27,839 nucleotides of DNA, taken from a phage. The stretch lies in assembly GCA_023859445.1 (NCBI GenBank), contig GCA_023859445.1_4337.1; one strand, written 5' to 3'. The notes under the pieces were generated by a model. That model searched no databases, was not told where the DNA came from, and saw only the letters and a program-made list of their open reading frames with translations. Shown here in pieces: positions 6,098 to 27,433 of this stretch. The position numbers were made by a program, and so were the translations under genes. Position 1 is the first letter of the stretch, and every line of letters begins with the position of its first letter.

Positions 6098-6118
6098 TCT
6101 ATTTTCTGCAATGACTAG

Positions 6119-7400: not shown

Positions 7401-7404
7401 GAGT

Positions 7405-7488: not shown

Positions 7489-7658
7489 TGTTCAGCGACA
7501 TCAACGCGGCAATCGAAGAAGCAATCTGGCGTCGCTACAACGGCGAGCAGCAGCGGCACTTCTGCCTGGTACAACGCGGTAACATGATTGCTGTGGTACA
7601 GGACCGTGATAATAAATATCCGAATGCGATGTGGACAACGAGGAATTTTTTAGGATGA
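7488..7658 (+). CDS. Hypothetical small protein (56 aa)
   Basis: ATG 7488 (TAATG overlap); codons counted to TGA 7656-7658. Confidence 0.4.
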   Translation: MFSDINAAIEEAIWRRYNGEQQRHFCLVQRGNMIAVVQDRDNKYPNAMWTTRNFLG

Positions 7659-8814: not shown

Positions 8815-10061
8815 GTATTCAGCTATCCGCACCGCAGGCACTGTTCCTGAATTGCGATAACAAATACAAAGCCTATGTCGGCGGCTTCGGCAGCGGAAAG
8901 ACATTTGTTGGCTGCCTTGACCTGCTTACGTTTATGCTCAAGCATCCAGGTACGCGCCTGGGTTACTTCGGCCCGACATACCCGGCTATCCGTGACATCT
9001 TCTACCCGACATTTGAGGAAGCCGCTAACCTGCTCGGCCTCGATGTGCTGGTTAAATCTGGCGACAAAGAAGTCGTGGTTACTCGCGGTAAGACGGTGCT
9101 CGGTACAGTTATCTGCCGTTCTATGGATAACCCAGGCTCGATAGTCGGCTTCAAAATCGCTGCTGCGGTCGTGGATGAGCTTGATGTATTGAGCCGTGAG
9201 AAAGCTGAGCTGGCGTGGAACAAAATAGTCGCCCGTATGCGTCTGGTTATCCCCGGCGTAACTAACCACATCTCTGTCACCACGACACCGGAAGGGTTCA
9301 AGTTCGTCTACGCCAAGTTCAAAGAGAACCCGACGCCGAGTTACTCGATGGTGCAGGCTTCTACACACGAGAACGCGCGATTCCTGCCGCCTGACTACAT
9401 TAGCTCACTGACCGAGACTTACCCCGCGCAACTGATTAACGCGTACCTGAACGGTGAGTTCGTTAACCTGACATCCGGCAGCGTGTATTATGCGTATGAC
9501 CGTCGCAAGCACCGCAGCAAAGAGACAATTCAACCGGGCGATACACTGTACATCGGGCAGGACTTCAACGTTACGAAGAACGCCAGCGCCGTGTATGTGC
9601 AACGTAAAGACGGCTGGCACGCGGTGGCAGAACTGAAAGGTCTGTTTGATACGCCGGACACCGTGCGTGTAATTACTGAGAAGTGGAAGTCGCAGGGCCA
9701 CCGCATAGTCGTTTACCCGGACGCCAGCGGCAAGAACCGCAAGACCAACTCGGCGTCAATCTCAGATATTGCGTTACTCCAGCAGGCCGGTTTCGATGTT
9801 CGCGCTAAATCCGCCAACCCTCCGGTTAAAGACCGTGTTTTAGCCGTGAATACCGCACTGGAAAAAGGTAAGCTGTGGGTTAATGACCACTTATGCCCCG
9901 AGATAGCGAAGACGCTGGAGCAGCAGGCATACGATGATAACGGAGAGCCAGCTAAAGACGGCATCATTGACCATATGGCGGATGCTCTCGGCTATCCTGT
10001 AGTTTACGAGATGCCGGTGGTTAAACCAGTAATCAACATCCCGGTGACTTTCGCACTTTAA
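8811..10061 (+). CDS. Terminase large subunit (416 aa)
   Basis: ORF track; Walker A GGFGSGKT near the N-terminus; ATGA overlap with upstream gene; followed by portal. Confidence 0.85.
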   Translation: MSIQLSAPQALFLNCDNKYKAYVGGFGSGKTFVGCLDLLTFMLKHPGTRLGYFGPTYPAIRDIFYPTFEEAANLLGLDVLVKSGDKEVVVTRGKTVLGTVICRSMDNPGSIVGFKIAAAVVDELDVLSREKAELAWNKIVARMRLVIPGVTNHISVTTTPEGFKFVYAKFKENPTPSYSMVQASTHENARFLPPDYISSLTETYPAQLINAYLNGEFVNLTSGSVYYAYDRRKHRSKETIQPGDTLYIGQDFNVTKNASAVYVQRKDGWHAVAELKGLFDTPDTVRVITEKWKSQGHRIVVYPDASGKNRKTNSASISDIALLQQAGFDVRAKSANPPVKDRVLAVNTALEKGKLWVNDHLCPEIAKTLEQQAYDDNGEPAKDGIIDHMADALGYPVVYEMPVVKPVINIPVTFAL

Positions 10062-10072
10062 GAGGACAACAA

Positions 10073-11566
10073 ATGGTTTCCGCAAACATTAACGCAGGGC
10101 AAGGGCAGAACGTTAAAACCCGCCACCGCCAGTACGAAGAGTATTTCCCTAAGTGGCAGAAGGTGCGACATGCGCTTTCTGGCGACCTGACATCGTATCT
10201 ACGTGACGTCAGTAAGAACGAGCCGGACCCGGTTTACGGTCGCCAGCGTCAGGCTGAATACGAAGCGGGGGCAATTTGCTACAACTTCACCAAGCGAACG
10301 CTTTCAGGCATGGTCGGCAGCGTAATGCGCAAAGACCCCGAGATGATTATTCCGTCTCAGATGGAATACCTGACCACTAACTGTGACGGGTCGGGCGTTG
10401 GCCTGTGGCAGCACGCACAGGATACTCTGTATGAGATTGATGCTGTTGGTCGCGGTGGTTTGCTGGTTGACGCCCCCGCGGTAGAAGTAGCTACCATGGC
10501 AGAGCAAAACGAGGGTTTACTAAACCCAACAATCGCTTTCTACACCGCAGAGAATATCATCAACTGGCGTCTCCAGCGCGTCGGGTCTGTTAATCGTGTG
10601 GTTATGGTTGTATTGCGTGAGGAATACGAGTACACCGATGGCGCGGATGAGTTCAGCCCCAACTACGGCGAGCAATACCGAGTCCTTGATATTTTCGAAG
10701 GCCAGTATCGCCAGCGTCTGTACCGCTTTAACCAGAAAGGTGCACTGACGGAAGGTGGCTATATCGAAATATTCCCGAAACTCGGTAATATTCCGGTCGG
10801 GGTGATTCCGTTCACGTTCATCGGCGCGGGAAATAACGACTCAACCCCTGACGATGCACCTTTGCTGCCGTTGGCTGAACTTAATATCGGGCACTTCCGC
10901 AACAGCGCGGACAATGAGGAGTCCAGCTTCGTCGTAGGCCAGCCTACTCTGTTCATCGCCCCCGGTGAGAACATGAGCATGGGACAATGGAAAGAAGCCA
11001 ACCCTCACGGAGTGCGTATGGGGTCACGTTCTGGCCATAACATCGGTTACGGCGGCAATGCGTTTCTGGTCCAGGCCGGTGAGAACAACCTAGCCAAGCA
11101 GAACATGTTGGATAAAGAGAACCAGGCAATCCAGATTGGTGCACAGCTTATTACCCCGACGCAGCAAATCACCGCGGAATCGGCACGCCTGCAACGCGGC
11201 GCTGATACGTCCGTTATGGCAACAATCGCACGTAACGTAAGCATGGCGTATACCGATGCGCTGAAATGGGTTGCAGGCATGCTTGGGCTTAGTGACGGTA
11301 CTGAGATTGAGTTTAAGCTGAATATGGAGTTCTTCCTGCAACCGATGACCGCTCAGGACCGTGCGCAGTGGATGGCTGATATAAACGCAGGCCTGTTACC
11401 AGCGACCGCTTACTATGCTGCATTGCGCAAGGCGGGTGTAACTGACTGGACGGACGAGGACATTCAGAATGCTATCGAGGACGCACCTCTGCCGATTGGT
11501 GCGGTTACTCAGGTAGCGGGGGAGATTCCGCAGTCGGCGCAGCAAAAAGACCCCACCCAGCAGTAA
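10073..11566 (+). CDS. Portal protein (497 aa)
   Basis: ORF track; SD AAGAGGA; size and position between terminase and head morphogenesis gene. Confidence 0.75.
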   Translation: MVSANINAGQGQNVKTRHRQYEEYFPKWQKVRHALSGDLTSYLRDVSKNEPDPVYGRQRQAEYEAGAICYNFTKRTLSGMVGSVMRKDPEMIIPSQMEYLTTNCDGSGVGLWQHAQDTLYEIDAVGRGGLLVDAPAVEVATMAEQNEGLLNPTIAFYTAENIINWRLQRVGSVNRVVMVVLREEYEYTDGADEFSPNYGEQYRVLDIFEGQYRQRLYRFNQKGALTEGGYIEIFPKLGNIPVGVIPFTFIGAGNNDSTPDDAPLLPLAELNIGHFRNSADNEESSFVVGQPTLFIAPGENMSMGQWKEANPHGVRMGSRSGHNIGYGGNAFLVQAGENNLAKQNMLDKENQAIQIGAQLITPTQQITAESARLQRGADTSVMATIARNVSMAYTDALKWVAGMLGLSDGTEIEFKLNMEFFLQPMTAQDRAQWMADINAGLLPATAYYAALRKAGVTDWTDEDIQNAIEDAPLPIGAVTQVAGEIPQSAQQKDPTQQ

Positions 11567-14222: not shown

Positions 14223-14849
14223 ATGAGCGAAGAAGTGAAAGACGAAACTATCGAACAACAAGAGACTAAGACCACGTTTACCAAAGAAGAAGTTGACGCG
14301 CTGGTATCCGGTCTTAAAGCTAACAACGAGAAGCTCTTGTCTGAAAAGAAAGCTGCTGCCGCTGCTGCGAAAGAAGCCGCAGATGCGAAGCTGAAAGCCG
14401 AACAGGAACGCGCAAAACAGAACGGCGAACTTGAGGCATTCGAGAAAACGTTGCGCAGTCAGTATGAGCCAGTACTCGCCGAGAAAGACGGTAAGATTAG
14501 CAAAATGGCTGAGCGTATCCTCGGCGCAGAACGTAAATCAGTTATCAGCCAGTTGTCTGGCATGTTGATTGATGAGAGCGCAGCGGATATTATCGCTATG
14601 ATGGTCAAGACCGAGTTCGACGGCGATGACGTTGTGACCAAGTTCACAGGTGCAGATGGTAATGTCATCACCACCGACGCAGAGCAATTTAAAAAGTATC
14701 TGCGTGAGCACAAAGCATTTTCGCATCTGATTAAAGCAGATGCAGCAACCGGCGGCGGGGCTTCCGGTAACAAAAATTCTACTGGCGGGGCCGGTGGTAC
14801 GGACGTAATTCAACAAAAACTTAACGCCAAATACGGCAAACGAGGATAA
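14223..14849 (+). CDS. Scaffolding protein (putative), 208 aa
   Basis: ATG 14223 (SD AGGGGA) in frame with track ORF 14172-14849; acidic, Ala/Lys/Glu-rich helical sequence; immediately upstream of major capsid gene. Confidence 0.6.
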   Translation: MSEEVKDETIEQQETKTTFTKEEVDALVSGLKANNEKLLSEKKAAAAAAKEAADAKLKAEQERAKQNGELEAFEKTLRSQYEPVLAEKDGKISKMAERILGAERKSVISQLSGMLIDESAADIIAMMVKTEFDGDDVVTKFTGADGNVITTDAEQFKKYLREHKAFSHLIKADAATGGGASGNKNSTGGAGGTDVIQQKLNAKYGKRG

Positions 14850-14855
14850 GAGATT

Positions 14856-15824
14856 ATGGCTCTGTCAGATATGAAGGTTTATAACGACGATATCGTCGGT
14901 ACCACTATCGAACTGCTTGGTCAGAAAACTGACCAGTTTAACGCGGCCTCCGGTGGCGCAATTGTACTGTCTACTGCCTCATGGCGCGGTGATTTCTCCC
15001 GTGAGTCTTTCTTTAACCAGATTGCCTCCGCTAAACGCCGCGTTGACCGTTACGCCGCTATCGCGTCTCAGGCAGCTACCGCGCTGACTCAGGGCGAGCA
15101 TGTAGGCGTTAAAGTCGCTGGCGGCTTCGGACCGGTACTGTTCGAGCCTGCGCAAATGACCTGGCTTAACGAAGACCCGGCAAGCGCGATTCGTGCTATT
15201 TCCGAAGGGTTCTCTGACGCACTGTTAGCTGACCAGCTTAACACCGCTGTTGGTGCCGCCGTTGCCGCGGTATCAGGTCAGACTGCACTGGTTAACAATG
15301 TATCCGCGACCGCTGGCTTGTCCCTGAACGTGCTGAACAACAGCCACGCTAAATTCGGCGACCAGTCTCAGCTGCTGATTACCGACATCATGACTGGTGC
15401 TGCTTATCACACGCTGGTAGATAAAGCGCTGACTAACGCAAACCAGCTGTTCGTTGCCGGTAACGTTATGGTTGTCGATGTTCTCGGCAAGCGTTACGTA
15501 ATCTCTGACATTCCTGCGCTGTACGAGGCCGGTGCTCCGAACAAGACTAAGGTCCTGTCCGTAGTTGCAAACGGCATCATCGTTGATAATGCTTCTGATA
15601 TTATCAGCAACATTGATACCAGCAACGGTAACACCCGCATCCAGACCACCTGGCAGGCGGATTACAGCTTCGGCCTGAAACTGAAAGGCTATAGCTGGGA
15701 TGTCGCCAACGGCGGTAAATCTCCGCTGGACGCAGAACTGTTCACCGCGACCAACTGGGACAAAGCTGTTGCCGAGAGCAAACACACCCTCGGTACTCTG
15801 GCAATCGCCGACGCGGACAAGTGA
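14856..15824 (+). CDS. Major capsid protein (putative), 322 aa
   Basis: ORF track; position after scaffold and before a strong terminator; assignment by synteny. Confidence 0.7.
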   Translation: MALSDMKVYNDDIVGTTIELLGQKTDQFNAASGGAIVLSTASWRGDFSRESFFNQIASAKRRVDRYAAIASQAATALTQGEHVGVKVAGGFGPVLFEPAQMTWLNEDPASAIRAISEGFSDALLADQLNTAVGAAVAAVSGQTALVNNVSATAGLSLNVLNNSHAKFGDQSQLLITDIMTGAAYHTLVDKALTNANQLFVAGNVMVVDVLGKRYVISDIPALYEAGAPNKTKVLSVVANGIIVDNASDIISNIDTSNGNTRIQTTWQADYSFGLKLKGYSWDVANGGKSPLDAELFTATNWDKAVAESKHTLGTLAIADADK

Positions 15825-15845
15825 TACAGTTAGTGGTAAAAACAA

Positions 15846-15865
15846 AGGGGCTACGGCCCCTTTTT
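15846..15865 (+). terminator. Intrinsic terminator after major capsid gene
   Basis: Stem AGGGGC/GCCCCT with TACG loop, followed by TTTTT (15861-15865). Confidence 0.7.
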
Positions 15866-15881
15866 ACTAGGAGAAATTAAA

Positions 15882-16049
15882 GTGGAAATTAAATATGTAC
15901 CAATGCCGATTACCATCGAGCAGAAGCGAGAATATAACCGTCGGGGGTTCCGTGTAGTAGATGCTCGTTTCGCACCAGAAGGTGCCGTGGTAGAATCGGC
16001 TAAAGAAGAGACACCGCGCCGCCAGCGCCGGGCGAAATCAGAGGAATAA
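15882..16049 (+). CDS. Small basic protein (55 aa; GTG start, in-frame ATG at 15903)
   Basis: SD AGGAG 15869-15873; codons counted to TAA 16047-16049; below track cutoff. Confidence 0.35.
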   Translation: MEIKYVPMPITIEQKREYNRRGFRVVDARFAPEGAVVESAKEETPRRQRRAKSEE

Positions 16050-16052
16050 TTT

Positions 16053-16565
16053 ATGCCGCTAATCGTGGAAGATGGGTCGATAGTACCTGATGCCGACAGT
16101 TACGTTAGTCTGGCCGACGCCCGCGCGTTAGCGGCTAATTACGGTCTTGTGTTGCCGGCAGACGATACCGCCGCAGAGGTGGCCCTGCGCAACGGTGCTA
16201 CTTATGTTGGGCTTGCAGAACCTCAGATGTGCGGGCGTCGCGTATCCGCTGAACAGTCTCTGGCGTACCCACGTACAGGAACAACACTAAACGGCTTCAC
16301 CGTAGCGGATAATGTTATCCCGTCGCAGTTAATCCGGGCACAAGTAATCGCTGCGGTTACGTATGGTGCGGGTACTGATGTTCGGGCTAACTCAGATGGG
16401 CGTTCCGTGCAGACTGAGCGTGTTGAGGGTGCTGTGACAGTGACATACTTCAACAACGGCAACAGTGGCGCCACAACCGCTATTACCGCTGCGGACGACG
16501 CATTACGCCCGTTACTGTGTGGTGGTCTTAACAATGGCTTCTCATTTAACGTGTACCGGGGTTAA
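16053..16565 (+). CDS. Head completion / head-tail connector protein (putative), 170 aa
   Basis: ORF track; position in the connector block; no specific motif recognised. Confidence 0.45.
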   Translation: MPLIVEDGSIVPDADSYVSLADARALAANYGLVLPADDTAAEVALRNGATYVGLAEPQMCGRRVSAEQSLAYPRTGTTLNGFTVADNVIPSQLIRAQVIAAVTYGAGTDVRANSDGRSVQTERVEGAVTVTYFNNGNSGATTAITAADDALRPLLCGGLNNGFSFNVYRG

Positions 16566-16567
16566 AA

Positions 16568-17182
16568 ATGGCAAAGACCAAAACAGAGATGTTTGCCCTT
16601 ATCGGCGCTAACCTTCCCGATAACACCACCGGGCTTATCACACCCGAGAAGTTACGCGAAGTAATGACGCAGATGGCAGATTCGCCTATCTATGCCACTC
16701 CCGGGGTGAAAGAGGTTGAAGTTCTCCGTGCCGCGTCCACTGTAATACAAGCACCATCCGCAGTGAACACAGCATTGCAGTTAACTTTCGGTCCCGCGCA
16801 GGGTAGCGCATCTGACCCGGTAATGATTAATGCAGCGGGTCTGGTTACGTTCAACACTGCAGGCAACTACGCCGTTCGCATCAAGTTACAGGCGGGGCGC
16901 ACTGGAGCGAGCGGGACGTCCGTCCTGTTATCGCGCATTCTTCTTAACGGCGCACAGTACGGCTCGCCAGCAGCTACTAAACTGGTAAGTGCTGATACTA
17001 CAATCCCGATTGAATCTCGCGTCGTTATTAACACAACCGCAGGCCAGACGTTTGCCGTTCAGATTATGCGGGATAGTGCCGGGACCAACTTCGGCGGCGT
17101 ATATCCGCAAGTTGCTACCGTAACCGCATGGGGTACAGCACCATCCGCATTACTGGTTATTTCGAGACTGGAGGCCGCCTGA
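16568..17182 (+). CDS. Virion structural protein (putative), 204 aa
   Basis: ORF track; tightly packed after previous gene; function by position only. Confidence 0.45.
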   Translation: MAKTKTEMFALIGANLPDNTTGLITPEKLREVMTQMADSPIYATPGVKEVEVLRAASTVIQAPSAVNTALQLTFGPAQGSASDPVMINAAGLVTFNTAGNYAVRIKLQAGRTGASGTSVLLSRILLNGAQYGSPAATKLVSADTTIPIESRVVINTTAGQTFAVQIMRDSAGTNFGGVYPQVATVTAWGTAPSALLVISRLEAA

Positions 17183-17276
17183 TGAATAAGTTCACATGTG
17201 GTGTAGTTTTTGGTTTTCTTACCGCGGTAGTCTTGCACAGTTACGGTGTTCTTTTGACGCTGCAAGAGGTGCTAAA

Positions 17277-17636
17277 ATGAGCACCGCTTTCAGTAAACGT
17301 ATGCAAGGCGTCGGTACACGCCTGCTAACCAAATTCGGTAGCACGGTATCTCTGATTCGCGCTGGTTCAAAAGTATGGGATGAAGTTCTCGGTGAGTACG
17401 TCTGGTCTGCGGATGAAGTGATGCCGTTGAAGGCCGTTCCGGTTCCGGTAAACGCGGGACTGGTAAACGGTACGACGATTCAGGCTGGCGACATGATTGT
17501 TAAAGCCGATTACAGCGTCGTTCCGAAGATGGAAGACAAGGTGCAATTCGGCGGCGAGCAATGGTCCATCGTAGCTATTGAGAAGAAGATGGTTAACGAT
17601 GACGTCGTGGCGTACTTTATTCAGGTGAGAAAATGA
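17277..17636 (+). CDS. Head-tail joining protein (putative), 119 aa
   Basis: ATG 17277 with SD AAGAGGTG, in frame with track ORF 17196-17636 whose N-terminal extension looks spurious. Confidence 0.45.
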   Translation: MSTAFSKRMQGVGTRLLTKFGSTVSLIRAGSKVWDEVLGEYVWSADEVMPLKAVPVPVNAGLVNGTTIQAGDMIVKADYSVVPKMEDKVQFGGEQWSIVAIEKKMVNDDVVAYFIQVRK

Positions 17637-18028
17637 GTTTCGCGCTCGATGTCTCTAAGTTCGTGGAAAAGGCGAAGAAGAACCCTGAGAAGGTGATGCG
17701 TCAGGTGTCTATCAAGCTGTTTTCCGCTATTATAAAGGCGAGTCCGGTAGACACGGGCCGCTTTCGTATGAACTGGATGGCATCTGGCGGTACTCCTGCT
17801 TCCGGGATTACGGACGCTACGGATAAATCAGGAAACACAGCAACCGGAAACGCTACGAGTTTCGTGCTGAAAGCCGCTGACTGGCATGAGTTCACGCTGA
17901 CAAATAATCTGCCGTATGCGCAACGGCTGGAGTATGGTTGGTCGCAACAGGCGCCAGCCGGGGTTGTCAGGACTAATGTGTCTCGCTTCCAGCAACTCAT
18001 TAACGAAGAAGCCAACAAGGTGAAATGA
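17633..18028 (+). CDS. HK97 gp10-like neck / tail-completion protein (131 aa)
   Basis: ORF track; motif PVDTGRFRMNW resembles the conserved DTG...W signature of the HK97 gp10 family (from memory). Confidence 0.55.
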   Translation: MSFALDVSKFVEKAKKNPEKVMRQVSIKLFSAIIKASPVDTGRFRMNWMASGGTPASGITDATDKSGNTATGNATSFVLKAADWHEFTLTNNLPYAQRLEYGWSQQAPAGVVRTNVSRFQQLINEEANKVK

Positions 18029-18441
18029 TGGGCTACTTTGAGGACTTAACAAAAGCGTTCGATGTTCCGCTGGTAGCCTTCGGAACCGCCAACGGCATCA
18101 AGGTCGCGCTTGAAAACATCGACGCGCCGACGTCAACCGATACGCCATATCTGGCAAGTTACATGTTACTGGCGGATACCGAGCAAGCAGATTTGTTCTT
18201 CACGGAACAACGCGCGGGTGTTTATCAGGTCGACATTAACTACGCATCGGTGAAAGGTAGCGCGCCAATCAATAAAATGGCAGACTTACTTAACACGGCA
18301 TTCAAAGCAGGTAAGTCATTTTCTCGTAACGACATCTGCGCCGAGGTTCAATCGGTTAGCCTGGGGCCGCTGATTGTAGAAAACGGATGGGCCAAACGAC
18401 CATTGTCAATTAACTTTATTGCATTCACCAAGAGGCTGTGA
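18025..18441 (+). CDS. Tail terminator / tail completion protein (putative), 138 aa
   Basis: ORF track; ATGA overlap; located immediately before the major tail gene. Confidence 0.4.
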   Translation: MMGYFEDLTKAFDVPLVAFGTANGIKVALENIDAPTSTDTPYLASYMLLADTEQADLFFTEQRAGVYQVDINYASVKGSAPINKMADLLNTAFKAGKSFSRNDICAEVQSVSLGPLIVENGWAKRPLSINFIAFTKRL

Positions 18442-18443
18442 AT

Positions 18444-19610
18444 ATGGCTACAACTCCTTTTAAGGGCGCGAATACTGCGCAATTCTATGTGGCAGAAACT
18501 ACCCCTGGCGTAACACCGACTAACCCGGTCTGGTCGCCATTGCGTAACACAGGTGGCGTTCCTGCCATTACCCGCGACACGCTGACCTCCAACGAACTGG
18601 ACGGCAGCCGTGAAACTACATCCATCCGCACCGGTAACAAACAGGTTAGCGGTGAATACGCGATCGAGCTTAGCTCGAAAAGCCAGGATGACTGGCTGGC
18701 TGGTGCTTTAGGCTCTACGTGGCAATCCGGTGTTTCCCTGTCCAGTCTGTCGATTACCGTCGCACCCGCGGGCAAGACGTTCACACGCGCTACCGGCAGT
18801 TTTATCACTGACGGAGTTGGGGTAGGCGACCTGATTGCATTTACCGATTTAACAGGCGATAACGCAAAACCATTTATTGTTACTGCAGTAACGGCTACGG
18901 TTGTTACCGGTGCGGGCATCCAACACACCCTGACCACCGAGACAAAAACTAGTAAGGCTAAAACCGGCGACACGCTGGAAACCGGTAACACGTGTAAGAC
19001 GTTCTCTATCCTTACCTGGTACAAAGGCCAGTGCGGCGGTACTGACGCGTACACGTTAACCAAAGGCGTGGAAGTTTCTGGTTTTACCATCGAACAGGCT
19101 GTTAACGCGATGGTAACTGGCAGCTTCCCATTCATCGGTCGCAGTCAGGAGATTCTCACTACGCCGCCGACCGGTTCCAACTTCTCATCTGTTACTTTTG
19201 GTGATGAGCCGTTCTCTTCGGTTGACGTTTCCGTGTTCGATGGCTCTACGCCGTTGCGTTGTGATAGCCTTACCATCACCAACGACAACAGCGCGTCCGC
19301 ACAGTTCGAACTCGGCAACACTAACGTAGCGTTTGTGGAGCGTAGCCGAGCAGCTAACACCTTCTCCATCTCCGGTAAGCTGTACGACATGGCGATGATT
19401 CAGAAGTTTATCAACGAGCAGCAGGTGGAGATTAACTCTATTCTGGCGGGGGTAAACGGGGCTATGTCTTTCAGTTTGAAACGTGCAGAACTTACGGCGG
19501 TTACACCTGAGATTGGAGGACCTGAGTCAATCACTCAGTCTATTGAAGGCCAGGCTACTGGCAACCAGTACCAGTCGTCTATTGTTATTCAGCGTATCAC
19601 ATACGCATAA
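18444..19610 (+). CDS. Major tail (tube) protein (putative), 389 aa
   Basis: ATG 18444 (SD AAGAGG 8 nt upstream) within track ORF 18438-19610; followed by strong terminator; by synteny. Confidence 0.55.
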   Translation: MATTPFKGANTAQFYVAETTPGVTPTNPVWSPLRNTGGVPAITRDTLTSNELDGSRETTSIRTGNKQVSGEYAIELSSKSQDDWLAGALGSTWQSGVSLSSLSITVAPAGKTFTRATGSFITDGVGVGDLIAFTDLTGDNAKPFIVTAVTATVVTGAGIQHTLTTETKTSKAKTGDTLETGNTCKTFSILTWYKGQCGGTDAYTLTKGVEVSGFTIEQAVNAMVTGSFPFIGRSQEILTTPPTGSNFSSVTFGDEPFSSVDVSVFDGSTPLRCDSLTITNDNSASAQFELGNTNVAFVERSRAANTFSISGKLYDMAMIQKFINEQQVEINSILAGVNGAMSFSLKRAELTAVTPEIGGPESITQSIEGQATGNQYQSSIVIQRITYA

Positions 19611-19614
19611 AACT

Positions 19615-19637
19615 AAGGCCCCGTTTGGGGCCTTTTT
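19615..19637. terminator. Bidirectional intrinsic terminator between convergent major tail gene and minus-strand operon
   Basis: Stem AAGGCCCC/GGGGCCTT, loop GTTT, flanked by AAAACT and TTTTT; stop of minus gene (19639) sits in the T-tract. Confidence 0.75.
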
Positions 19638-19638
19638 C

Positions 19639-20193
19639 TTACAAACCTAATCTTAAAGCAATGCCTATAGCGTTCGATTTAACGTAACCCGGTATGATGT
19701 AGGTGTCATAATCTTTTACACCATCAATATCGTACAGGTAACCGCGGCTGTCCCCTTCAAACGTATGGCCGTCTCTGTGCAAGCGGACGATTCTCACATC
19801 ATGCCACGCGGCAACGATAGGGGCTACTTCGCTGGCGAACCCGCCATCAGACACCACAAAAACTTCGTCGCCGTCGGGCAAGTTTCCGGCAAGATACTTA
19901 CCGAAATAATCATCACCGAATACCGGTTTAATGAATTGCTCGGAAATGGCAATCATGAACTGACGCCGAGACAACCCGTTAAGGAAACCCTCTGGCTTTT
20001 CTTTCCGCGCCCGGTCGTCGTAGCCGTCGAGAAACTCGCGGTAAGCATCCTGGCCTAACGCAGCCATAGCAATATTGAACATCGGATTCTTGAAACTGGC
20101 GACACCCTTCGCAAAGCCCATTTCTACCAGCGCCCTAGCAAGTGTGTCTTTCCCGCAGCCCGCAGGACCATTAAGAATAATTACCTTAGCCAT
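19639..20193 (-). CDS. P-loop nucleotide kinase (dNMP kinase-like; possibly polynucleotide 5'-kinase), 184 aa
   Basis: ORF track; N-terminal Walker A LNGPAGCGKDT, similar in pattern to phage dNMP kinase GKDT P-loops. Confidence 0.65.
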   Translation of the reverse strand: MAKVIILNGPAGCGKDTLARALVEMGFAKGVASFKNPMFNIAMAALGQDAYREFLDGYDDRARKEKPEGFLNGLSRRQFMIAISEQFIKPVFGDDYFGKYLAGNLPDGDEVFVVSDGGFASEVAPIVAAWHDVRIVRLHRDGHTFEGDSRGYLYDIDGVKDYDTYIIPGYVKSNAIGIALRLGL

Positions 20194-20678
20194 TATTTAT
20201 CACTCCCATGTGGTTTTAAGTGTGTAGAGTTCCCGTTACAGTCGTATTCAGTAACTGCGTGAGTGGTTATGCCGAGTTCGCGGAAATGCTTTATTACCGC
20301 TGGAGAGTCGTCGAATGCACACAAGATTCTCTCCGGCCCAATAGCACGCAACACCTCTTCTTTAATTACGATGTCTTTTCTGTTGTCGTGTTTGCTGCGC
20401 ATGATTAACTGATAAAATTCGACGCGGTGGCGCTGCAACCACATTCTGGTTTCTTTTTCCGCGTCATCACTACGGCCTGTTAAGATAATAACGGCATAGC
20501 GACGATTAAGGGCGTTACACAGTTCGATGTTATCTTTAATGGGTGCATCGTCTTTGCACGCCATGTTAAATGGTTTCCACGCCCAGGTTTCGCCGTAGTT
20601 ATCTTTCGGCAGCAGGTGTAAACGATGAGTACCATCTGCCAATGTCCCGTCTAAATCGAAAATCACAATATCTTTCAT
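20193..20678 (-). CDS. HAD-superfamily phosphatase (polynucleotide 3'-phosphatase / nucleotidase-like), 161 aa
   Basis: ORF track; HAD motif I FDLDGTL, motif II ILTGRS, C-terminal FDDS; pattern resembles the T4 Pnk phosphatase domain as recalled from memory. Confidence 0.65.
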   Translation of the reverse strand: MKDIVIFDLDGTLADGTHRLHLLPKDNYGETWAWKPFNMACKDDAPIKDNIELCNALNRRYAVIILTGRSDDAEKETRMWLQRHRVEFYQLIMRSKHDNRKDIVIKEEVLRAIGPERILCAFDDSPAVIKHFRELGITTHAVTEYDCNGNSTHLKPHGSDK

Positions 20679-21805
20679 CCAAGCATCTCCGGTGAAATAG
20701 TTAAACGTGCGACCTCGCCATATTCGGCGCTATAAGTAATTACGTTTGCACTGCGGCCCGACATCCACCCACCGCGGGAGGCATATGCATCTTTAGCCGC
20801 GAGAGTGCGGTGTTGCTCAACAATCATGTTACGGCTTTCTATAATCTTTTGGTGGTGCAGGTGACCCACGTGGGCGTAGCTGTAAACACTCTCGCCGAAC
20901 GCTTTGCGGAACTTGGCGATCATAACCGGTTCGATAGCGTCGAATCGTGCTTTATGCCCATGATGGAAGAACAGCGTCGTTTTGCCGTGTTGCACCATCT
21001 TGTAAACATCCGGCGACGTATCGACGAACACACGCGGCTCATTGTCGTACAGCGTACTAAACATCTCAGCTAACCAAATCATTCCGCTTTCGTCGTGGTT
21101 ACCTTGCACGATAAGCAAGCGAACATTTTTATGTTTAACGAGAGCCATATCAATGACACGGCGGACCATACGAATCATGTAGCGTACAAGTTTCTGATAG
21201 CGGGTGTCAGCGTCAAGAACATGACCACTGGCAGGTGTAACGGCGTCCAGACTATCGAAATGCGCAAGGTCGCCCAGCAGATTAATAACTCCTGTTCCGG
21301 CATCCGGTGCTTTCTGGAACGCTGCGTCGAACCAGCGGGAGAACAGGTCTTCCGCAATCTTCATGTCCCAGTCGTCGCCGCTCTCGTCAGCCCAGGCCAG
21401 CATACCGAGATGGAAATCAGACACAGTGTAAAGGTTGAGTAGCTTGTCGTCTCGTTTGGCGCGAACGGCTTTAACAGGTGCAACTGGTGTAATCTCCGAC
21501 TTCATGCCTTCGATTACGGCTTTCATCAATTCAACCTGACGTTCGGCATCGGTGTCGGTCTTAACCCATTGCAACTTGGTGTTGCCAAACTCATCCACCA
21601 GTGATGACGTTCCTTTAATCTTGTAGCCGTCCGGCACAAGGTGACTAACGTCGCGCCCGTGGCCTACGCCTTTCTTAGCCAGCTTCGCTTTACGGATACG
21701 GATAACGCGGTCAGAGATGCCGTATTTACGGGCGATGTCGATATTCTTCATACCGGCGTTCAATTCTTCCTGTAACTGTTCGTCGGTTATTTTCTTCCTG
21801 GCCAT
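20675..21805 (-). CDS. Calcineurin-like metallophosphoesterase with N-terminal HTH-like domain (376 aa)
   Basis: ORF track; phosphoesterase motifs D-x-H (SDFHLG), GD..D (GDLAHFD), GNHDE, HHGH, GHLHH; N-terminal segment NIDIARKYGISDRVIRIRKAKL looks helix-turn-helix. Confidence 0.7.
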   Translation of the reverse strand: MARKKITDEQLQEELNAGMKNIDIARKYGISDRVIRIRKAKLAKKGVGHGRDVSHLVPDGYKIKGTSSLVDEFGNTKLQWVKTDTDAERQVELMKAVIEGMKSEITPVAPVKAVRAKRDDKLLNLYTVSDFHLGMLAWADESGDDWDMKIAEDLFSRWFDAAFQKAPDAGTGVINLLGDLAHFDSLDAVTPASGHVLDADTRYQKLVRYMIRMVRRVIDMALVKHKNVRLLIVQGNHDESGMIWLAEMFSTLYDNEPRVFVDTSPDVYKMVQHGKTTLFFHHGHKARFDAIEPVMIAKFRKAFGESVYSYAHVGHLHHQKIIESRNMIVEQHRTLAAKDAYASRGGWMSGRSANVITYSAEYGEVARLTISPEMLG

Positions 21806-21849
21806 GCTTATTCCTCGTGTTTAGGATTTGTCTTATTTAACTACAATAG

Positions 21850-22176
21850 CTATTTACTTTCCACTCCCGCCGCCCAAGCTAGAGAGACGATTTGTAAGCG
21901 AGTAGCCACCAATGCGCTGCTGTAGCCTGGTGATTTCATGTCCACAGAACTCATGACAAGGCCTGTTACAAGGTCGAAGCTAACCCCTGCTGCTCCTGCT
22001 GAATACGCGGCCTCACATTCTTTAATAACCGCATTTTTAAACATTTTTTGCGCGGCTACAGGGGCGCTTTCTATTAAACCCGCAGTTATTAATGGGGTTT
22101 CAGAATAAATCTGCTCACAAGTGGAACCTACCGCAGTAAAAGATATGAAACCTAAAGCTAAGATTAATGTACGCAT
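21850..22176 (-). CDS. Small secreted/periplasmic protein with N-terminal signal peptide (108 aa)
   Basis: ORF track; MRTLILALGFISFTAVGSTCEQ looks like a cleavable signal peptide (no canonical lipobox); SD AAGGAA; first gene after conserved promoter copy 4. Confidence 0.5.
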   Translation of the reverse strand: MRTLILALGFISFTAVGSTCEQIYSETPLITAGLIESAPVAAQKMFKNAVIKECEAAYSAGAAGVSFDLVTGLVMSSVDMKSPGYSSALVATRLQIVSLAWAAGVESK

Positions 22177-22217
22177 TTGTTAATTCCTTATTTGAGATAA
22201 CATTGTTGGTGTAAGTG

Positions 22218-22247
22218 AATAGTACCCTATTATATTTGGGTGCGCAA
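22218..22247 (-). promoter_or_regulatory. Conserved phage promoter, copy 4 (TTGCGC-N17-TACTAT, minus strand)
   Basis: -35 complement of 22242-22247, -10 complement of 22219-22224, palindrome AATAGTACCCTATT 22218-22231; drives the minus-strand accessory operon. Confidence 0.5.
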
Positions 22248-22355
22248 GTAGTGTGTTAGAATAATTTTGCACCTAGTGTCGCGCACGAAAAGCGGATGGT
22301 TACCGCCTGGTGCATTTAAGCCAAACCAACAACCTCTTAACCAAAGGATTAAAGA

Positions 22356-22772
22356 ATGAAACTGTCAGACTTCTACTTTGCGTCCAAACACGCAGCAGGA
22401 ACCAAGATGCCGATTCTGTTGCCAGACGGCAGCGATTCCGGCGAATGGCTACAGGTCATGGGGCCAGATTGCGACGACTCCATCGCAGCTGCTAAAGACT
22501 TCATCTCTGCTTATCGCGACATCCTGGACAACCTGAAGCCGCTTGACGCTGAGTGCCGCGAGAAAGGCGACTGGGCTAGATATAACACTGAGTTGAACAG
22601 TGAACTGGCGAAGCTGAATGATGCGCTTGCCGCCGTTGTAGTGATAGGCTGGTCCTTCGACGAGAAGTTCACTAAGAAGGCGCTTGTTAAACTACTCAAG
22701 GAATACAAAGGCTTAGGTGGTGCAGTGGCCCAGCATCACGCAGAGAGCCGCAAAGCGCTGTCGGTAAAGTAG
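22356..22772 (+). CDS. Tail assembly chaperone (putative), 138 aa
   Basis: ORF track; SD AAAGGA; acidic protein immediately upstream of tape measure region; by synteny. Confidence 0.5.
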   Translation: MKLSDFYFASKHAAGTKMPILLPDGSDSGEWLQVMGPDCDDSIAAAKDFISAYRDILDNLKPLDAECREKGDWARYNTELNSELAKLNDALAAVVVIGWSFDEKFTKKALVKLLKEYKGLGGAVAQHHAESRKALSVK

Positions 22773-22804
22773 AGGCGCTCTACGAATATGCGCGGTATCG
22801 CTGG

Positions 22805-23122
22805 GTGATACGTCAGAAGCGCCGGGAGTTCGACTCCATCGCGGACGGTCACAAAGCGGCTCTGACGGCGATGGGATTACCAGTCCCGCCAGAGCCGGAA
22901 GAAGACCCTCCAGAATGCCCGGCTGATATGATGCGAATCATGGACAAATACTACGCATTGAAGTTTGTAAGTCGCAATAACGTACTAATACCGAGGGAGA
23001 TGCTTCAATACCATCACCTGACAGCATATGCTGAACTACACAAGCAACCGTTCACGCTATTGGAGGTGGATTTAATCATGGGCCTTGACGCATTGTTCGA
23101 AGGCCGTAACGAGGATGAATAG
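22805..23122 (+). CDS. Second tail-chaperone-region ORF in the -1 frame (105 aa; independent gene or frameshift extension)
   Basis: ORF track (GTG start, weak SD); its frame is open from 22691 and overlaps the end of the upstream gene by about 80 nt; ends 2 nt before the tape measure start. Confidence 0.4.
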   Translation: MIRQKRREFDSIADGHKAALTAMGLPVPPEPEEDPPECPADMMRIMDKYYALKFVSRNNVLIPREMLQYHHLTAYAELHKQPFTLLEVDLIMGLDALFEGRNEDE

Positions 23123-23123
23123 A

Positions 23124-25121
23124 ATGGCAGATACCGCAAGTTTAATCGTAAAGGTACAGGCTACCGGGGCAGAGCAGGCCGCCAAGCAGCTTGATAGCCT
23201 GAGCAGTTCCGCGGGTAAGGCGGATACCAGTACCAAGAAGATGACTGACACCACATCGGCAGCGGCACCGAAGATGAACGCGCTCAAAGCGTCCATCGGC
23301 AACGCTGGATATCAGGTACAGGACTTCATCGTACAGATTCAGGGCGGGCAATCGGCCCTCACCGCGTTCACCCAGCAGGGTAGCCAGTTAGTATCAGCGT
23401 TTAACCCGATTGCAGGTACTGTGTTGACGCTGGCTACGGTTATCGGCGGCGCGCTATACGCTTCGATGTCCGACGCGAAGGACACCGCAAAGGAACTGGA
23501 AGACGCGACCAAGTTCCTCGATGATGCACTGAACGAAGCAACGCCGGGCGTGTATGAAATGAACGACGCACTGGAGAAGCTCGACGCTATCGGTGCTACC
23601 ACGGCGGAGAAGATGGCATTTCTCAACAAGGCACTGGAAGCTACTGCCGTGCAAGCCAACGCTACCGCTGACAAGATTGTAGAAGCAATCGACAAGGTGA
23701 CTAAGGCGCAGTCCATCTTCCAGAAGCTTACGACCAACCTTGCCGCGTCGCAGATAGCGCAGGGCGGTAATGCTGCTGGGGCGGTGGCGTTCCAGTACGA
23801 AGCAGCAGCAGAGGCCGCTGGACTTACCGCAAAAGAGATGCGTAGTATTGAGGTCGCACAGAAAGCTATCGCCGCTGGAGTTCCGGGCGCTCGTGAAGGA
23901 CTGATTGCGTACCTCGACGGCATCAAAGCTAAGACGCCGGAAGCGCAAATCGAGCTTAACAAGCTGCGTAATGAACTGAACTACCTAGGCGTAGAGGAGA
24001 AGACACGCGCCGCTGAACGTAAGGGCGTAGAACAGGCTGAGAAGACATACGAGAAGGACAAAGCGGACCGGGCGCAGAAGGAAATCGACCGCCAGAATCG
24101 AATCAGTGCTGCCGCCGTGAAACGTGCGTCCGCGCAGGCACGAGCAGAGGCTAAAGCGCAGGAGAGCGCACAGAAAGCCGCTGACCAGTTCATCGCGCAA
24201 CTCGATACCAACACAGGTACCGAGTTAGACAAAATCGATGCTAAAGAGAAGCAGAAGCTAGCTAAGTTGCAGGAATACCATGACAAGCAACTGGTAAGCG
24301 ACGCTGAGTATGAGCAGTCGAAAAGCGACATCATGGCCGAGTTTCAGGCACAGCGGGACGCCCTCTACAACAACGCCGATGTGTATTTACAGAAGTTACA
24401 AGCGCTTGGCGGCACTGAGTACGAGGAAATCCAACGGCAGAATGACGCCAAACTCAAGCAACTGGATGACTTCCTGAAACAGAAGCTGATTAGCGAAGAA
24501 CAGTACGCCAACGCAGTTACCGCGCTGAATGAGCAAAGCAACATTGCGCAGGCTAACGCTACAGCCAACGCGTTCGGAAGCATGGCTGCCGATGCTAAAT
24601 CCGCATTGGGTGAAACGTCCGCCGCGTATAAAGCGTTCGCAATCACCCAGGCGACCATCGCCACCTACACCGCAGCTATAGAGGCGTACAAGTCCACGGC
24701 AGCTATCCCGATTGTTGGCCCGGCGCTAGCCCCGGTTGCCGCCGGTCTGGCAGTTGCCGCAGGTGTGGCTAACATCGCCAAGATTAGCGGTGCGCGTGAG
24801 CAGGGCGGGCAGATGAACGCAGGCGGTAGCTATCTTGTCGGGGAACGTGGTCCAGAGATTATTAAGATGGGTGGTGCCGGTCGTGCAAGTAATGCAAGCC
24901 AGACGCGGGCTGAGCTGTCAGGCAGTGGTAACAGCGGCCCGGCTAACATCAGCATCATTAACAACACTAGTGCACAAATCGGCAACGTATCTACTGAACA
25001 GGATGATGAAGGGCGTCTGCGCATCATTATCTCTGAGCAGGTGGCTTCTGAGCTAATGAACAGCAACAGTCGGATTAGCAAGGCCCGCAAGTCTACGCGA
25101 AATGCACCCGGCTTTAAGTGA
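23124..25121 (+). CDS. Tape measure protein (666 aa)
   Basis: ATG 23124 (SD GAGG 9 nt upstream) within track ORF 23085-25121; long Ala/Gln/Lys-rich helical protein with hydrophobic Gly/Ala-rich segment near the C-terminus. Confidence 0.8.
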   Translation: MADTASLIVKVQATGAEQAAKQLDSLSSSAGKADTSTKKMTDTTSAAAPKMNALKASIGNAGYQVQDFIVQIQGGQSALTAFTQQGSQLVSAFNPIAGTVLTLATVIGGALYASMSDAKDTAKELEDATKFLDDALNEATPGVYEMNDALEKLDAIGATTAEKMAFLNKALEATAVQANATADKIVEAIDKVTKAQSIFQKLTTNLAASQIAQGGNAAGAVAFQYEAAAEAAGLTAKEMRSIEVAQKAIAAGVPGAREGLIAYLDGIKAKTPEAQIELNKLRNELNYLGVEEKTRAAERKGVEQAEKTYEKDKADRAQKEIDRQNRISAAAVKRASAQARAEAKAQESAQKAADQFIAQLDTNTGTELDKIDAKEKQKLAKLQEYHDKQLVSDAEYEQSKSDIMAEFQAQRDALYNNADVYLQKLQALGGTEYEEIQRQNDAKLKQLDDFLKQKLISEEQYANAVTALNEQSNIAQANATANAFGSMAADAKSALGETSAAYKAFAITQATIATYTAAIEAYKSTAAIPIVGPALAPVAAGLAVAAGVANIAKISGAREQGGQMNAGGSYLVGERGPEIIKMGGAGRASNASQTRAELSGSGNSGPANISIINNTSAQIGNVSTEQDDEGRLRIIISEQVASELMNSNSRISKARKSTRNAPGFK

Positions 25122-25129
25122 CAACAGAA

Positions 25130-25151
25130 AGGCCCTCAGGGCCTTTATTTT
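25130..25151. terminator. Bidirectional intrinsic terminator after tape measure gene
   Basis: Stem AGGCCC/GGGCCT, short loop, then TTATTTT; stop of the minus-strand gene (25145) lies within it. Confidence 0.7.
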
Positions 25152-25903
25152 CTCCAGCCTCTGGGTTTATGCCCCTCGTTACACAATTTGGTAAACTCCG
25201 CGATGATTGCGGTATCGGCTACCATCCACTCACTTGCTCCGTCAAAGTTGCTTAGCTCCGCTGATACGTGTGCGCGGTGGAAATATCGCTCCAACATACG
25301 GCAACGAGCACCATTAGCGTCTTGGTATACGCTAAGCACATGGAACTCGAATGGGGTGGCACGCTCTAGCTGGGCAAGGCGTTGCTTTAACTTGTTAGTG
25401 ATACCTATTTTGAGATATTTACCACATGCGGAAAGAAGCCCGTAAATATATCCCGGTTTGTTAGAATTGTAGCCGTGCTTGGCACATGAGGGGCATCCAT
25501 GCCCATGCACTAAAATGTTATTAACTCCCGTGACAAACACCCCGTGGTCCTTACAGACCCGTATCGCTTTTGAATTTTTGTTAAGGTACGCCCCGCCCTC
25601 AAAACCCACGAACGTATATCGAACATCCGCTGATTTTATTTGCTCAATAACCGCATTTGTATTCTTGCGGTACGCAACAGACGCGGCCTCCCTGCTGCAT
25701 TTCATGCACCCGTGACCTCCGGCGATGCTACGGGCTATAGCCGCAAATTCGCCGTGTTCTGGGCAAGTAATTCTAATCTTACTGGTCGAGTTGATATACT
25801 CGCTACCATCATAACTTGGGGATATTGTGTACTTCCCGCCGTGTTTCTTTAAATCTAACTCGACCATTTTCTTCCGTTCTTCCCAACCAATTTTAGCGCT
25901 CAT
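25145..25903 (-). CDS. Homing-endonuclease-like protein (GIY-YIG / T5orf172-MUG113-like C-terminal domain with two N-terminal Cys/His zinc-ribbon repeats), 252 aa
   Basis: ORF track; repeats CPEHGEF...GHGCMKC and CKDHGVF...GHGCPSC; C-terminal GYIYGLL...KIGIT...R pattern resembles GIY-YIG-type domains (from memory); opposite strand inside the tail module. Confidence 0.55.
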   Translation of the reverse strand: MSAKIGWEERKKMVELDLKKHGGKYTISPSYDGSEYINSTSKIRITCPEHGEFAAIARSIAGGHGCMKCSREAASVAYRKNTNAVIEQIKSADVRYTFVGFEGGAYLNKNSKAIRVCKDHGVFVTGVNNILVHGHGCPSCAKHGYNSNKPGYIYGLLSACGKYLKIGITNKLKQRLAQLERATPFEFHVLSVYQDANGARCRMLERYFHRAHVSAELSNFDGASEWMVADTAIIAEFTKLCNEGHKPRGWRK

Positions 25904-25923
25904 ACCAACCTCGCCCTTGTTTT

Positions 25924-25958
25924 AATAGCATACTATTCAACCATATGGTATCTGTCAA
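25924..25958 (-). promoter_or_regulatory. Promoter for the endonuclease-like gene (TTGACA-17-TAGTAT) carrying the palindrome AATAGCATACTATT
   Basis: -35 complement of 25953-25958, -10 complement of 25930-25935; palindrome 25924-25937 (copy 5 of the family). Confidence 0.5.
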
Positions 25959-26032
25959 CTTAAATGCAATGACGCTATGCTTCTCCCCATGATACCATTG
26001 ACCTTAACATCCAATCTATCGAGGTTTTAATA

Positions 26033-27433
26033 ATGGGTGACTTATATTTCCCACGTAGCCTTAAGCCAATTGTATCGAAAGGCTACTCAATGACCAGACG
26101 TAACAACGTCTGGAGTGTAGATTTAGCCGGTGGCGGGGTGCGTCAGGGCCGTGACACGTATTACGACGTGTTCCCTGTTAGCGTAACCCTGATTACATCC
26201 GCAATGGGGCGACAGGCGTTTCTGTCGTTCCTCGAAAAAGTAGACGGCGGTGCGTCAAGTTTCTGGATGGCGCACGACTTCGGCATGGGCATCGAAGATT
26301 ATCAGGTAACCATTACGTCCACTATCGCCGAGTCCACCGAAGACGGGATTAACTGGACAATCACCTTCACGGCAACCGCCGAGAAATCGCCGTTCCAGGA
26401 CCTTGAGAACCAGTGCCTGATTAACAATCTGCCAGATTTGTACGGCTGTTACGGGGATTGTCTGGGTAGTTTCCTGAAAATATACGCGAACTATGAGACG
26501 ACATTCCCTCGCATCTGGAGCGACGAAGGTCCTGCCGGATATCCGCCGATTAACATGCTGGCATCTACGCTTGATAGCCGCATTGTTTATGAGGGGCCGC
26601 AGGTTTATTACATCAACCACAACGGTAATCTTGTGCAGTCCGCCGTCAATGAATGGCCTCTTACGTTTATTGACGGGGTTGCTGTCGGGCGTGTGCCGCC
26701 AGAGGTATCAGTAACTAACAGATTCCTATATTCAAGCAATTTCTCTTCGTCAAACTGGAACAAAGGTTTGGTTAGTGTATCAGTATCTGAAACAGGTGTT
26801 TTAACAGCCGCGGGCACGTACGACGTAACTGCTACCGCCACAAGCGGTAACCACCTAATAAACCAGACTGTAGATGTTAGCGTCGGTGTTGGCGACAAGG
26901 TGACTTTTAGTTTCTTCGCAAAAGCAAACGGATACAATTTCATACGGATGTACGTGCGAGAACTTCCTACAGCATTAGGCTCAGCAGTTGTAGATTTGCG
27001 GGATGGTAGCATTTATTCCGGCCCAGGCGGTACAGATGTAACCGACGTAGGCGGAGGGTGGTTCCGAATATCGGAGACGGTCAACGCGACAGAAGATAAA
27101 ACAATGAGCATACGGATGGACGCATGGATATATTCAGACGGAGTTACCGGGACATTTACGGGGGATGGCGTTTCAGGGATTAAATTATCCGCGGCTACTG
27201 TAGAGGTAAACCAAAATACAACATCACCAATAATTACGGCGGCGTCTCCTGTAACACGCCCCGCGGCATCGGCAAAAGTAGTAATGAACGGCGCAACAAG
27301 CATCGGCATTACCTACTCCGACGGCTCTGTGGTAGACGTTCAGGCTGTTGACGGTTACGCCACCATCCCACAGGCGGATTCTGCGTGGGGTAGTAAATAC
27401 GTCACCCGTATTGATTTTAATGTGGACGGTTAA
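26033..27433 (+). CDS. Minor tail protein, lambda gpM-like N-terminal domain with long C-terminal extension (466 aa)
   Basis: ORF track; N-terminal pattern SVTL...FLSFLEKVDGGASSFWM resembles lambda gpM (recalled); first tail-tip gene after tape measure. Confidence 0.5.
   Translation: MGDLYFPRSLKPIVSKGYSMTRRNNVWSVDLAGGGVRQGRDTYYDVFPVSVTLITSAMGRQAFLSFLEKVDGGASSFWMAHDFGMGIEDYQVTITSTIAESTEDGINWTITFTATAEKSPFQDLENQCLINNLPDLYGCYGDCLGSFLKIYANYETTFPRIWSDEGPAGYPPINMLASTLDSRIVYEGPQVYYINHNGNLVQSAVNEWPLTFIDGVAVGRVPPEVSVTNRFLYSSNFSSSNWNKGLVSVSVSETGVLTAAGTYDVTATATSGNHLINQTVDVSVGVGDKVTFSFFAKANGYNFIRMYVRELPTALGSAVVDLRDGSIYSGPGGTDVTDVGGGWFRISETVNATEDKTMSIRMDAWIYSDGVTGTFTGDGVSGIKLSAATVEVNQNTTSPIITAASPVTRPAASAKVVMNGATSIGITYSDGSVVDVQAVDGYATIPQADSAWGSKYVTRIDFNVDG

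Follow-up and report, generated by a model that had tools for sequence, protein, structure and literature searches.

A putative homing endonuclease gene of the phage T5orf172 class between two tail genes of an Escherichia coli Kagunavirus

Why does a gene on the opposite strand stand between two phage tail genes that are normally adjacent? We addressed this question in a phage DNA stretch of 27,839 nucleotides (GenBank assembly GCA_023859445.1, contig GCA_023859445.1_4337.1), hereafter the window, which comes from an Escherichia coli Kagunavirus (Guernseyvirinae), a K1ind-like siphovirus. A minus-strand open reading frame (ORF) at 25145..25903, stop codon included, starts with ATG and encodes 252 aa. 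Its neighbors are plus-strand genes for a 678-aa protein on the left (23085..25121) and a 466-aa protein on the right (26033..27433), which agrees with the original prediction of an opposite-strand gene between two tail genes. Relatives annotate the flanking pair as the tape measure protein and either a minor tail protein or 'tail tip protein M'. We consider it likely from the sequence comparisons below that the 252-aa gene belongs to the free-standing homing endonuclease genes of the T5orf172 class known from phages, with zinc fingers of the CapR/DUF723/DUF4379 type. The case is clean but ordinary, and the endonuclease type has been described in phages before.

The C-terminal part of the protein carries the nuclease signature. 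Two Pfam models scored above their cut-offs in this part, MUG113 (residues 164-217, E 1.2e-8, 35.8 bits against 22.3) and T5orf172 (residues 152-233, E 1.5e-5, 25.9 bits against 20), and PHROG 681, 'endonuclease', matched the 252-aa protein with E 6e-51. The GIY-YIG Pfam model remained below its cut-off (E 0.098). The T5orf172/MUG113 domain of the GIY-YIG superfamily occupies 25199..25456 of the minus strand (residues ~150-235, core residues Y154, K165-I-G167, R175, E205, and E225), so the GIY-YIG/T5orf172-like C-terminal domain proposed earlier was recovered. The N-terminal 145 residues consist of two homologous modules which share 31% identity (E 9e-9) and each have the ligand pattern C-x2-H...C-x2-C. 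Repeat 1 lies at 25694..25849 of the minus strand (residues ~19-70; ligands C47, H50, C66, and C69), and its predicted structure has a beta-hairpin and a helix. Repeat 2, at 25481..25639 of the minus strand (residues ~89-141; ligands C117, H120, C137, and C140), is the CapR homology domain, whose Pfam match at residues 95-141 is above the cut-off (E 1e-7, 32.4 bits against 24.2). Weaker matches of DUF4379 and DUF723 to the zinc-finger region were below their cut-offs. The two zinc-ribbon-like repeats of the original prediction are therefore well founded.

Residue conservation was inspected in an alignment of 34 homologues with 24-88% identity. In the nuclease region Y154, K165, G167, R175, E205, G222, and E225 are invariant. 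The zinc ligands C47, C66, C69, C117, C137, and C140 are also invariant and H50 is kept in at least 90% of the homologues; in both modules, all ligands of the C-x2-H...C-x2-C pattern are either invariant or conserved at the level of at least 90%. Judging by spacing, we take Y154 to be the tyrosine of the GIY element, K165-I166-G167 to be the YIG element, R175 to be the catalytic arginine, and E225 to be the metal-binding glutamate. The counterparts in I-TevI are presumably Y6, Y17, R27, and E75, a correspondence that comes from spacing and established knowledge rather than from a structure-based residue alignment.

The predicted C-terminal fold is consistent with these motifs, since it best matches GIY-YIG nucleases and has the GIY-YIG alpha/beta arrangement. 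The highest fold-comparison values were obtained with SLX1 (6.3, 6.2, and 5.8), followed by EF2693 (5.2), which is of the GIY-YIG type. Lower values were given by the I-TevI catalytic domain (4.8), a GIY-YIG restriction enzyme specific for 5-hydroxymethylcytosine (4.7), UvrC (4.4), Eco29kI (4.1), and T4 EndoII (3.7). A sequence search of the 252-aa protein against solved structures returned nothing meaningful.

Existing annotations of homologues point in other directions. A RefSeq note reads 'similar to 30S ribosomal protein' for the homologue gp29 in phage fFiEco02 (NC_073316.1, 18807-19553), the label of a homologue in a Citrobacter phage is 'ribosomal protein L3-like', and others are labeled 'type 2 secretion system protein'. 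Such labels look like misannotations of the endonuclease family driven by the zinc ribbons.

The comparison with related phages, which the original prediction had proposed as a check, revealed that the insert is polymorphic. A 401-bp probe across the uninterrupted junction, counted when at least 80% of it was covered in one piece, found the two tail genes uninterrupted in 72 phage records. Three records have a T5orf172-type gene at the junction (two phages other than the window), and seven have another endonuclease (five phages). In K1ind2 and fEg-Eco06, the tape measure stop codon overlaps the next ATG (TAATG), confirming that the flanking genes are normally adjacent. The homology of the window to these two empty sites ends at 25117 and restarts at 26020. 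The inserted cassette is placed precisely at this stop/start overlap, at 25122..26019 (~898 bp), and comprises a hairpin, the endonuclease gene, and a promoter region; most Kagunavirus genomes do not have it. Only fFiEco02 (two records) and DUEC01 have copies of the protein with ~91% identity, and in both phages the gene occupies this junction in the same orientation. The gene would have been hard to regard as mobile if all relatives carried it at this position and its catalytic residues were lost. In fact, most relatives lack the gene and the core is invariant in the 34 homologues.

Outside the genus, the endonuclease identity in phages of the phage collection is below 60%, and is 33-40% among the matches listed. 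Two more distant homologues, of 51% and 60% identity, point convergently toward the 3' end of a tape measure homologue in unrelated contigs. This suggests that the endonuclease lineage tracks the tape measure 3' end across differing genome layouts. In the metagenomic contig with the 51% homologue (locus 4607-7810), an extra 90-aa gene is located between the endonuclease and the tape measure homologue, and the genes on the other side of the endonuclease are not tail genes.

The other endonuclease at the junction is unrelated to the 252-aa protein. In XY1, VIPECOTH07, fEg-Eco19, SHAK7693, and MirsaeidiM_Esher4 (Esher4), a 216-aa gene is inserted at exactly this junction, in the same orientation as the endonuclease gene of the window. 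The 216-aa protein has a weak AP2 match and is called an HNH endonuclease in two of the records; an HNH domain was not detected in the present analysis. We refer to it as the HNH-AP2 type. No NCBIfam family matched the T5orf172-type or the HNH-AP2 endonuclease. In Esher4, the gene is frameshifted by a perfect 55-bp tandem duplication (CCTTTGCCACCC...TTTTTA, twice; record 1-490 and 44107-44409), which may reflect either genuine decay or an error of assembly. Gene breakage of this kind is the decay expected of homing endonuclease genes. Only a 127-aa fragment of the HNH-AP2 gene is annotated in Esher4.

We also examined the substitution pattern of the gene. Between the window and the DUEC01 and fFiEco02 copies, the ratio of nonsynonymous to synonymous substitution rates (dN/dS) is 0.05-0.06 (0.058) at a dS of ~0.74. 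For the zinc-finger region alone the ratio is 0.09, and for the nuclease domain 0.03. These ratios indicate that the protein is maintained, and the nuclease domain above all. The gene could be an inactive remnant which persists until it is deleted, since homing endonuclease genes in general often degenerate once fixed and the HNH-AP2 type is visibly degenerate in Esher4. However, the 252-aa ORF is intact with every core residue present, the three copies are equal in length save at the extreme C-terminus, and a dN/dS of ~0.05 over a dS of 0.74 contradicts such a state. We regard a remnant as hardly credible.

The original prediction offered two identities, a free-standing mobile endonuclease and a domesticated DNA-binding regulator. 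In the latter case, the zinc fingers would serve to repress or adjust transcription, perhaps that of the tail operon, in the way of the satellite protein CapR, and the protein would no longer have a mobile nuclease role. The 252-aa protein has a CapR homology domain, and the repressor function of CapR, which derives from this gene family, is proven (Netter et al., 2021; PMC8096241). The consensus-like, host-type promoter of the gene, its antisense position inside a late operon, and the strong purifying selection would also fit a regulator. However, CapR (15.5 kDa) resembles only the N-terminal domains of phage T5orf172 proteins (PMC8096241), whereas the window protein has kept the nuclease domain with all core residues invariant and the lowest dN/dS (0.03). 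Moreover, a useful regulator would not be absent from ~90% of close relatives, nor would its site be taken over by an unrelated HNH-AP2 endonuclease. The regulator is thus disfavored as very unlikely, and the mobile endonuclease is the part of the original prediction that stands, with the support of sporadic presence, a rival endonuclease at the site, an invariant core, a GIY-YIG-like fold, selection, and a mosaic boundary.

The mosaic boundary was seen in the flanks of the insert. Over window positions 23000-25126, which cover most of the tape measure gene as far as its stop codon, the window is 99.9% identical to Esher4, an HNH-AP2 carrier. The tape measure gene of DUEC01, a phage with the endonuclease type of the window, has only 57-68% identity to that of the window. 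The distribution of the endonucleases therefore does not follow the flanks. The downstream tail gene is closest to LF7074P3 (97%) and then to the K1ind phages (93%). Esher4 also shares a 9-kb block with the window (16110..25160, 98.2% identity) that stops at the insert; outside the block, the identity to Esher4 is 91-93% rightward and 72-97% leftward where the sequences can be aligned. In Esher4, a further HNH endonuclease gene (record 9565-10314), absent from the window, adjoins the left end of the block. A block with endonuclease sites at its ends resembles the 'HEG islands' (HEG, homing endonuclease gene) reported for T5orf172 genes (Barth, Dunham & Seed, 2023; PMC10448857). As evidence for exchange of the flanks, the mosaic boundary is correlative only. 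A search of the window found no second copy of the endonuclease gene, no HNH-AP2 gene, and no homologue of the Esher4 HNH gene.

To the left of the block, window positions 14774-16110 (including a 322-aa ORF at 14856-15824) have no detectable nucleotide similarity to Esher4, and the sequences on both sides are similar. This looks like the replacement of a module among the head genes.

An active nuclease could also serve mainly in conflict, cutting the DNA of a co-infecting phage, a satellite, or the host in a sequence-specific manner, like Odn of phage ICP1. Odn is an example of a T5orf172 nuclease redeployed against satellites (PMC10448857), the nuclease domain of the window protein is intact and selected, and the host-type promoter would permit early expression. 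The DNA-binding modules are nonetheless the ordinary CapR/DUF723-type fingers of the homing class, in contrast to the borrowed replication-initiator domain of Odn. The genomic signature is also that of homing, with an intergenic location between essential genes, presence/absence polymorphism, turnover of endonucleases, and a mosaic boundary. We consider a role mainly in conflict unlikely as a separate explanation; it overlaps with the homing endonuclease assignment because cutting co-infecting relatives is part of homing.

We propose the following course for a homing endonuclease of this kind. The host RNA polymerase would transcribe the gene from its own promoter in the direction opposite to the tail operon, and the hairpin would stop this transcription before it runs antisense into the tape measure gene, thereby protecting the tape measure. 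In the protein, the two N-terminal zinc-finger modules would bind DNA and the C-terminal T5orf172 domain would cut it. During a mixed infection, the protein may recognize a sequence at or near the uninterrupted junction of the tape measure gene and the next tail gene in a co-infecting relative and cut there; the homing target may sit in the conserved 3' end of the tape measure gene. Recombinational repair from the carrier genome would then copy the cassette together with flanking tail-gene sequence into the recipient. Such cutting and repair would account for the boundary of genetic exchange at the site.

Other kinds of mobile element were inspected as well. An intron- or intein-encoded homing endonuclease was ruled out, as the insert lies between genes, with its ORF on the opposite strand, and has no Rfam match at E <= 1, group I and group II introns included. 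An insertion sequence or transposon was likewise ruled out by the absence of terminal repeats, inverted ones included, and of a transposase domain, the repeats in the insert being short and at chance level. The insert ends share a similarity of ~12 nt, which is an imperfect copy of the gene junction.

Several points weigh against the homing endonuclease assignment. The second tyrosine of the classical YIG element is a lysine in the window protein (KIG). A KIG element in place of YIG is typical of T5orf172 proteins. The two lineages of the endonuclease gene are old (dS 0.74), and their spread is not demonstrably recent. The promoter and terminator of the cassette are pattern matches only. A plus-strand terminator between the tape measure gene and the distal tail genes would be costly for the phage, and the promoter scan found no plus-strand promoter for the downstream tail genes within the insert. 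Finally, homing of the T5orf172 genes of ICP1 was not verified experimentally, according to Barth et al. (PMC10448857). This small and tractable E. coli phage group would be a convenient system in which to test homing by the T5orf172 class.

The assignment gains from the agreement with the described class. In the survey of Barth et al. (PMC10448857), 87% of 229 phage T5orf172 endonuclease genes had at least one zinc-finger domain of the CapR/DUF723/DUF4379 type. The genes mostly adjoin essential genes, tape measure neighborhoods being among those noted, other endonuclease classes are often nearby or at the same locus, and T5orf172 genes flank the high-identity HEG islands (PMC10448857). In one case, the nuclease activity was dependent on a conserved glutamate (PMC10448857). 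The window gene is similarly free-standing beside an essential structural gene, variable among close relatives, accompanied by a second endonuclease class at its locus, and placed at a high-identity exchange boundary. We found the Pfam family, the core motif, the zinc modules, the site polymorphism, the location between conserved essential genes, and the flanking exchange. Every testable feature of the class is thus present, and the window gene differs only in the host lineage, the low identity outside the genus, and the site. A literature search found no description of this insertion site in Kagunaviruses.

Individual systems resemble the window gene to different degrees. ICP1 gp165 and gp174 have the same arrangement of N-terminal zinc-finger repeats and a C-terminal T5orf172/MUG113 domain (PMC10448857). 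However, ICP1 is a Vibrio phage with an expanded family of these genes, whereas the host lineage of the window gene is an E. coli Kagunavirus, a small siphovirus, with one copy per genome. CapR of the Vibrio cholerae satellite PLE has the type of zinc-finger DNA-binding domain found at residues 95-141 (PMC8096241) and, as a repressor of 15.5 kDa that resembles the N-terminal domains only, differs from the window protein with its intact and selected nuclease domain. Like the genes of the free-standing GIY-YIG endonucleases of T4 (Seg proteins), the window gene is free-standing and intergenic between conserved genes. The expected outcome of a Seg-type gene in mixed infection is marker exclusion or gene conversion. 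Unlike I-TevI and Seg, in which the nuclease is N-terminal, the window protein has a C-terminal nuclease with KIG for YIG, and the DNA-binding modules differ. The HNH-AP2 ('IPA-HNH') homing endonucleases share the identical junction and strand, a common hairpin module, and ~35 nt of 3' sequence with the window gene, but their protein is unrelated and has neither zinc-finger repeats nor a T5orf172 domain.

The expression signals in the cassette were inspected on both strands. A Shine-Dalgarno-like GAGG at 25909..25912 of the minus strand was identified by direct reading of the sequence, 5 nt upstream of the endonuclease ATG. Upstream of it, the promoter scan gave a sigma-70-like candidate, TTGACA-17-TAGTAT, at 25930..25958 of the minus strand (-35 at 25958..25953, -10 at 25935..25930). 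This is the strong promoter of its own that the original prediction assigned to the gene. The element is there and fits the consensus at 10 of 12 positions, but the surrounding 2 kb contain two promoter-like sites, equal to the shuffle expectation of 2.0. Since the count is at chance level, only position and quality favor the candidate. DUEC01 and fFiEco02 have TTGCCA-17-TAGCAT at the same position (extracted loci 3440-3480 and 3480-3520). The element is conserved in position and weaker in these two phages.

A GC-rich hairpin with an 8-bp stem, AAAGGCCC-TCA-GGGCCTTT, lies at 25128..25146, starting 7 nt past the tape measure stop codon and overlapping the endonuclease stop codon. It was found by the scan and by folding of both strands. 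The plus strand continues into a T-run and the minus strand into a T-rich tail, reading TTTCTGTTGT; the scan calls the hairpin a terminator on the plus strand only. The original prediction regarded it as the terminator of the tape measure gene which the endonuclease gene shares. This view was not borne out, because genomes without the insert have no hairpin there; the hairpin came with the insert and is not ancestral. Variants of the hairpin are present in the HNH-AP2 cassettes. At the other end of the cassette, the right junction GGTTTTAATAATG (26020..26032, plus strand) is a near-copy of the tape measure end GGCTTTAAGTGA, as judged by comparison with the empty-site sequence GGGGTTTAAATAATG of K1ind2 and fEg-Eco06. 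The right junction rebuilds the ribosome-binding context of the downstream tail gene, and both flanking ORFs are intact.

The 3' ends of the two cassette types are related. The T5orf172-type and the HNH-AP2 cassettes have homologous sequence in the ~35 nt upstream of the hairpin, and the hairpin variants cross the two types: the form in the window recurs in XY1, and the form in DUEC01 recurs in Esher4. In XY1, the sequence past the HNH-AP2 stop codon reads PRGWRN, and the same stretch in the window encodes the C-terminus ...NEGHKPRGWRK. The PRGWRN stretch is more likely a relic of a T5orf172 gene displaced by the HNH-AP2 gene, to judge from the sequence, because the tail also occurs in homologues of 51-63% identity. 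The converse, a ...KPRGWRK tail borrowed from the HNH-AP2 cassette, was rejected, as the homologues that share the tail come from other contexts and contigs. It is possible, though we hold it with considerable doubt, that the junction is a contested homing site at which the zinc-finger-T5orf172 and HNH-AP2 families displace each other via the shared 3' module of the hairpin and ~35 nt. If so, either enzyme may target the occupied alleles of the other besides the empty ones, and the promoter and terminator of the cassettes would split the transcription of the tail operon.

The HNH-AP2 cassette has a compact 5' end. In XY1 (3420-3460 of the extracted locus), and equally in Esher4, the endonuclease gene and the tail gene, on opposite strands, start only ~35 bp from each other. 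Between the two starts, the inverted repeat TAGTATCTCCTA...TAGGAGTATCTT provides a TAGGAG ribosome-binding site in both directions. This cassette has no room for a separate promoter, in comparison with the ~130-bp region in the window cassette. Among the HNH-AP2 carriers, the SHAK7693 record (OR594180.1, vB_EcoM_SHAK7693) is assigned to Kayfunavirus of the Autographiviridae and has an 'M' (myovirus) in its name; its locus carries a Kagunavirus siphovirus tail module with a tape measure gene. The record is probably mislabeled.

The window gene leaves the current understanding of these endonucleases unchanged and is a tidy, unsurprising case. Its practical value is in the material, since empty, occupied, and alternatively occupied alleles all exist in sequenced isolates, phages of the BASEL collection included. 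We suggest annotating the gene as a putative homing endonuclease, not as hypothetical or '30S ribosomal protein'-like. Such genes may also drive recombination boundaries in the tail modules of Kagunaviruses intended for therapy or engineering.

The flanking tail genes were identified mainly by position and by the annotation of relatives. The tape measure gene (23085..25121, plus strand, 678 aa) has a weak match to Pfam TMP_2 and follows two tail assembly chaperone genes. The next tail gene (26033..27433, plus strand, 466 aa), labeled 'gpM-like' in the original prediction, is annotated as 'tail tip protein M' in fEg-Eco06. The label is justified by its position after the tape measure gene and before a DUF1833 (gpL-like) gene and by this annotation, but a Pfam search of the 466-aa protein gave no match. 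The gene at the gpM position occurs in two lengths, a long form of 466 aa in the window, K1ind2, DUEC01, and XY1 and a short form of 166 aa in Esher4, fFiEco02, VIPECOTH07, and fEg-Eco19. Residues 159-464 of the long form match the 'tail fiber protein gp17' structure (PDB 9occ_C, E 2.7e-91), so the gpM-position protein has a fiber-like C-terminal extension in some phages.

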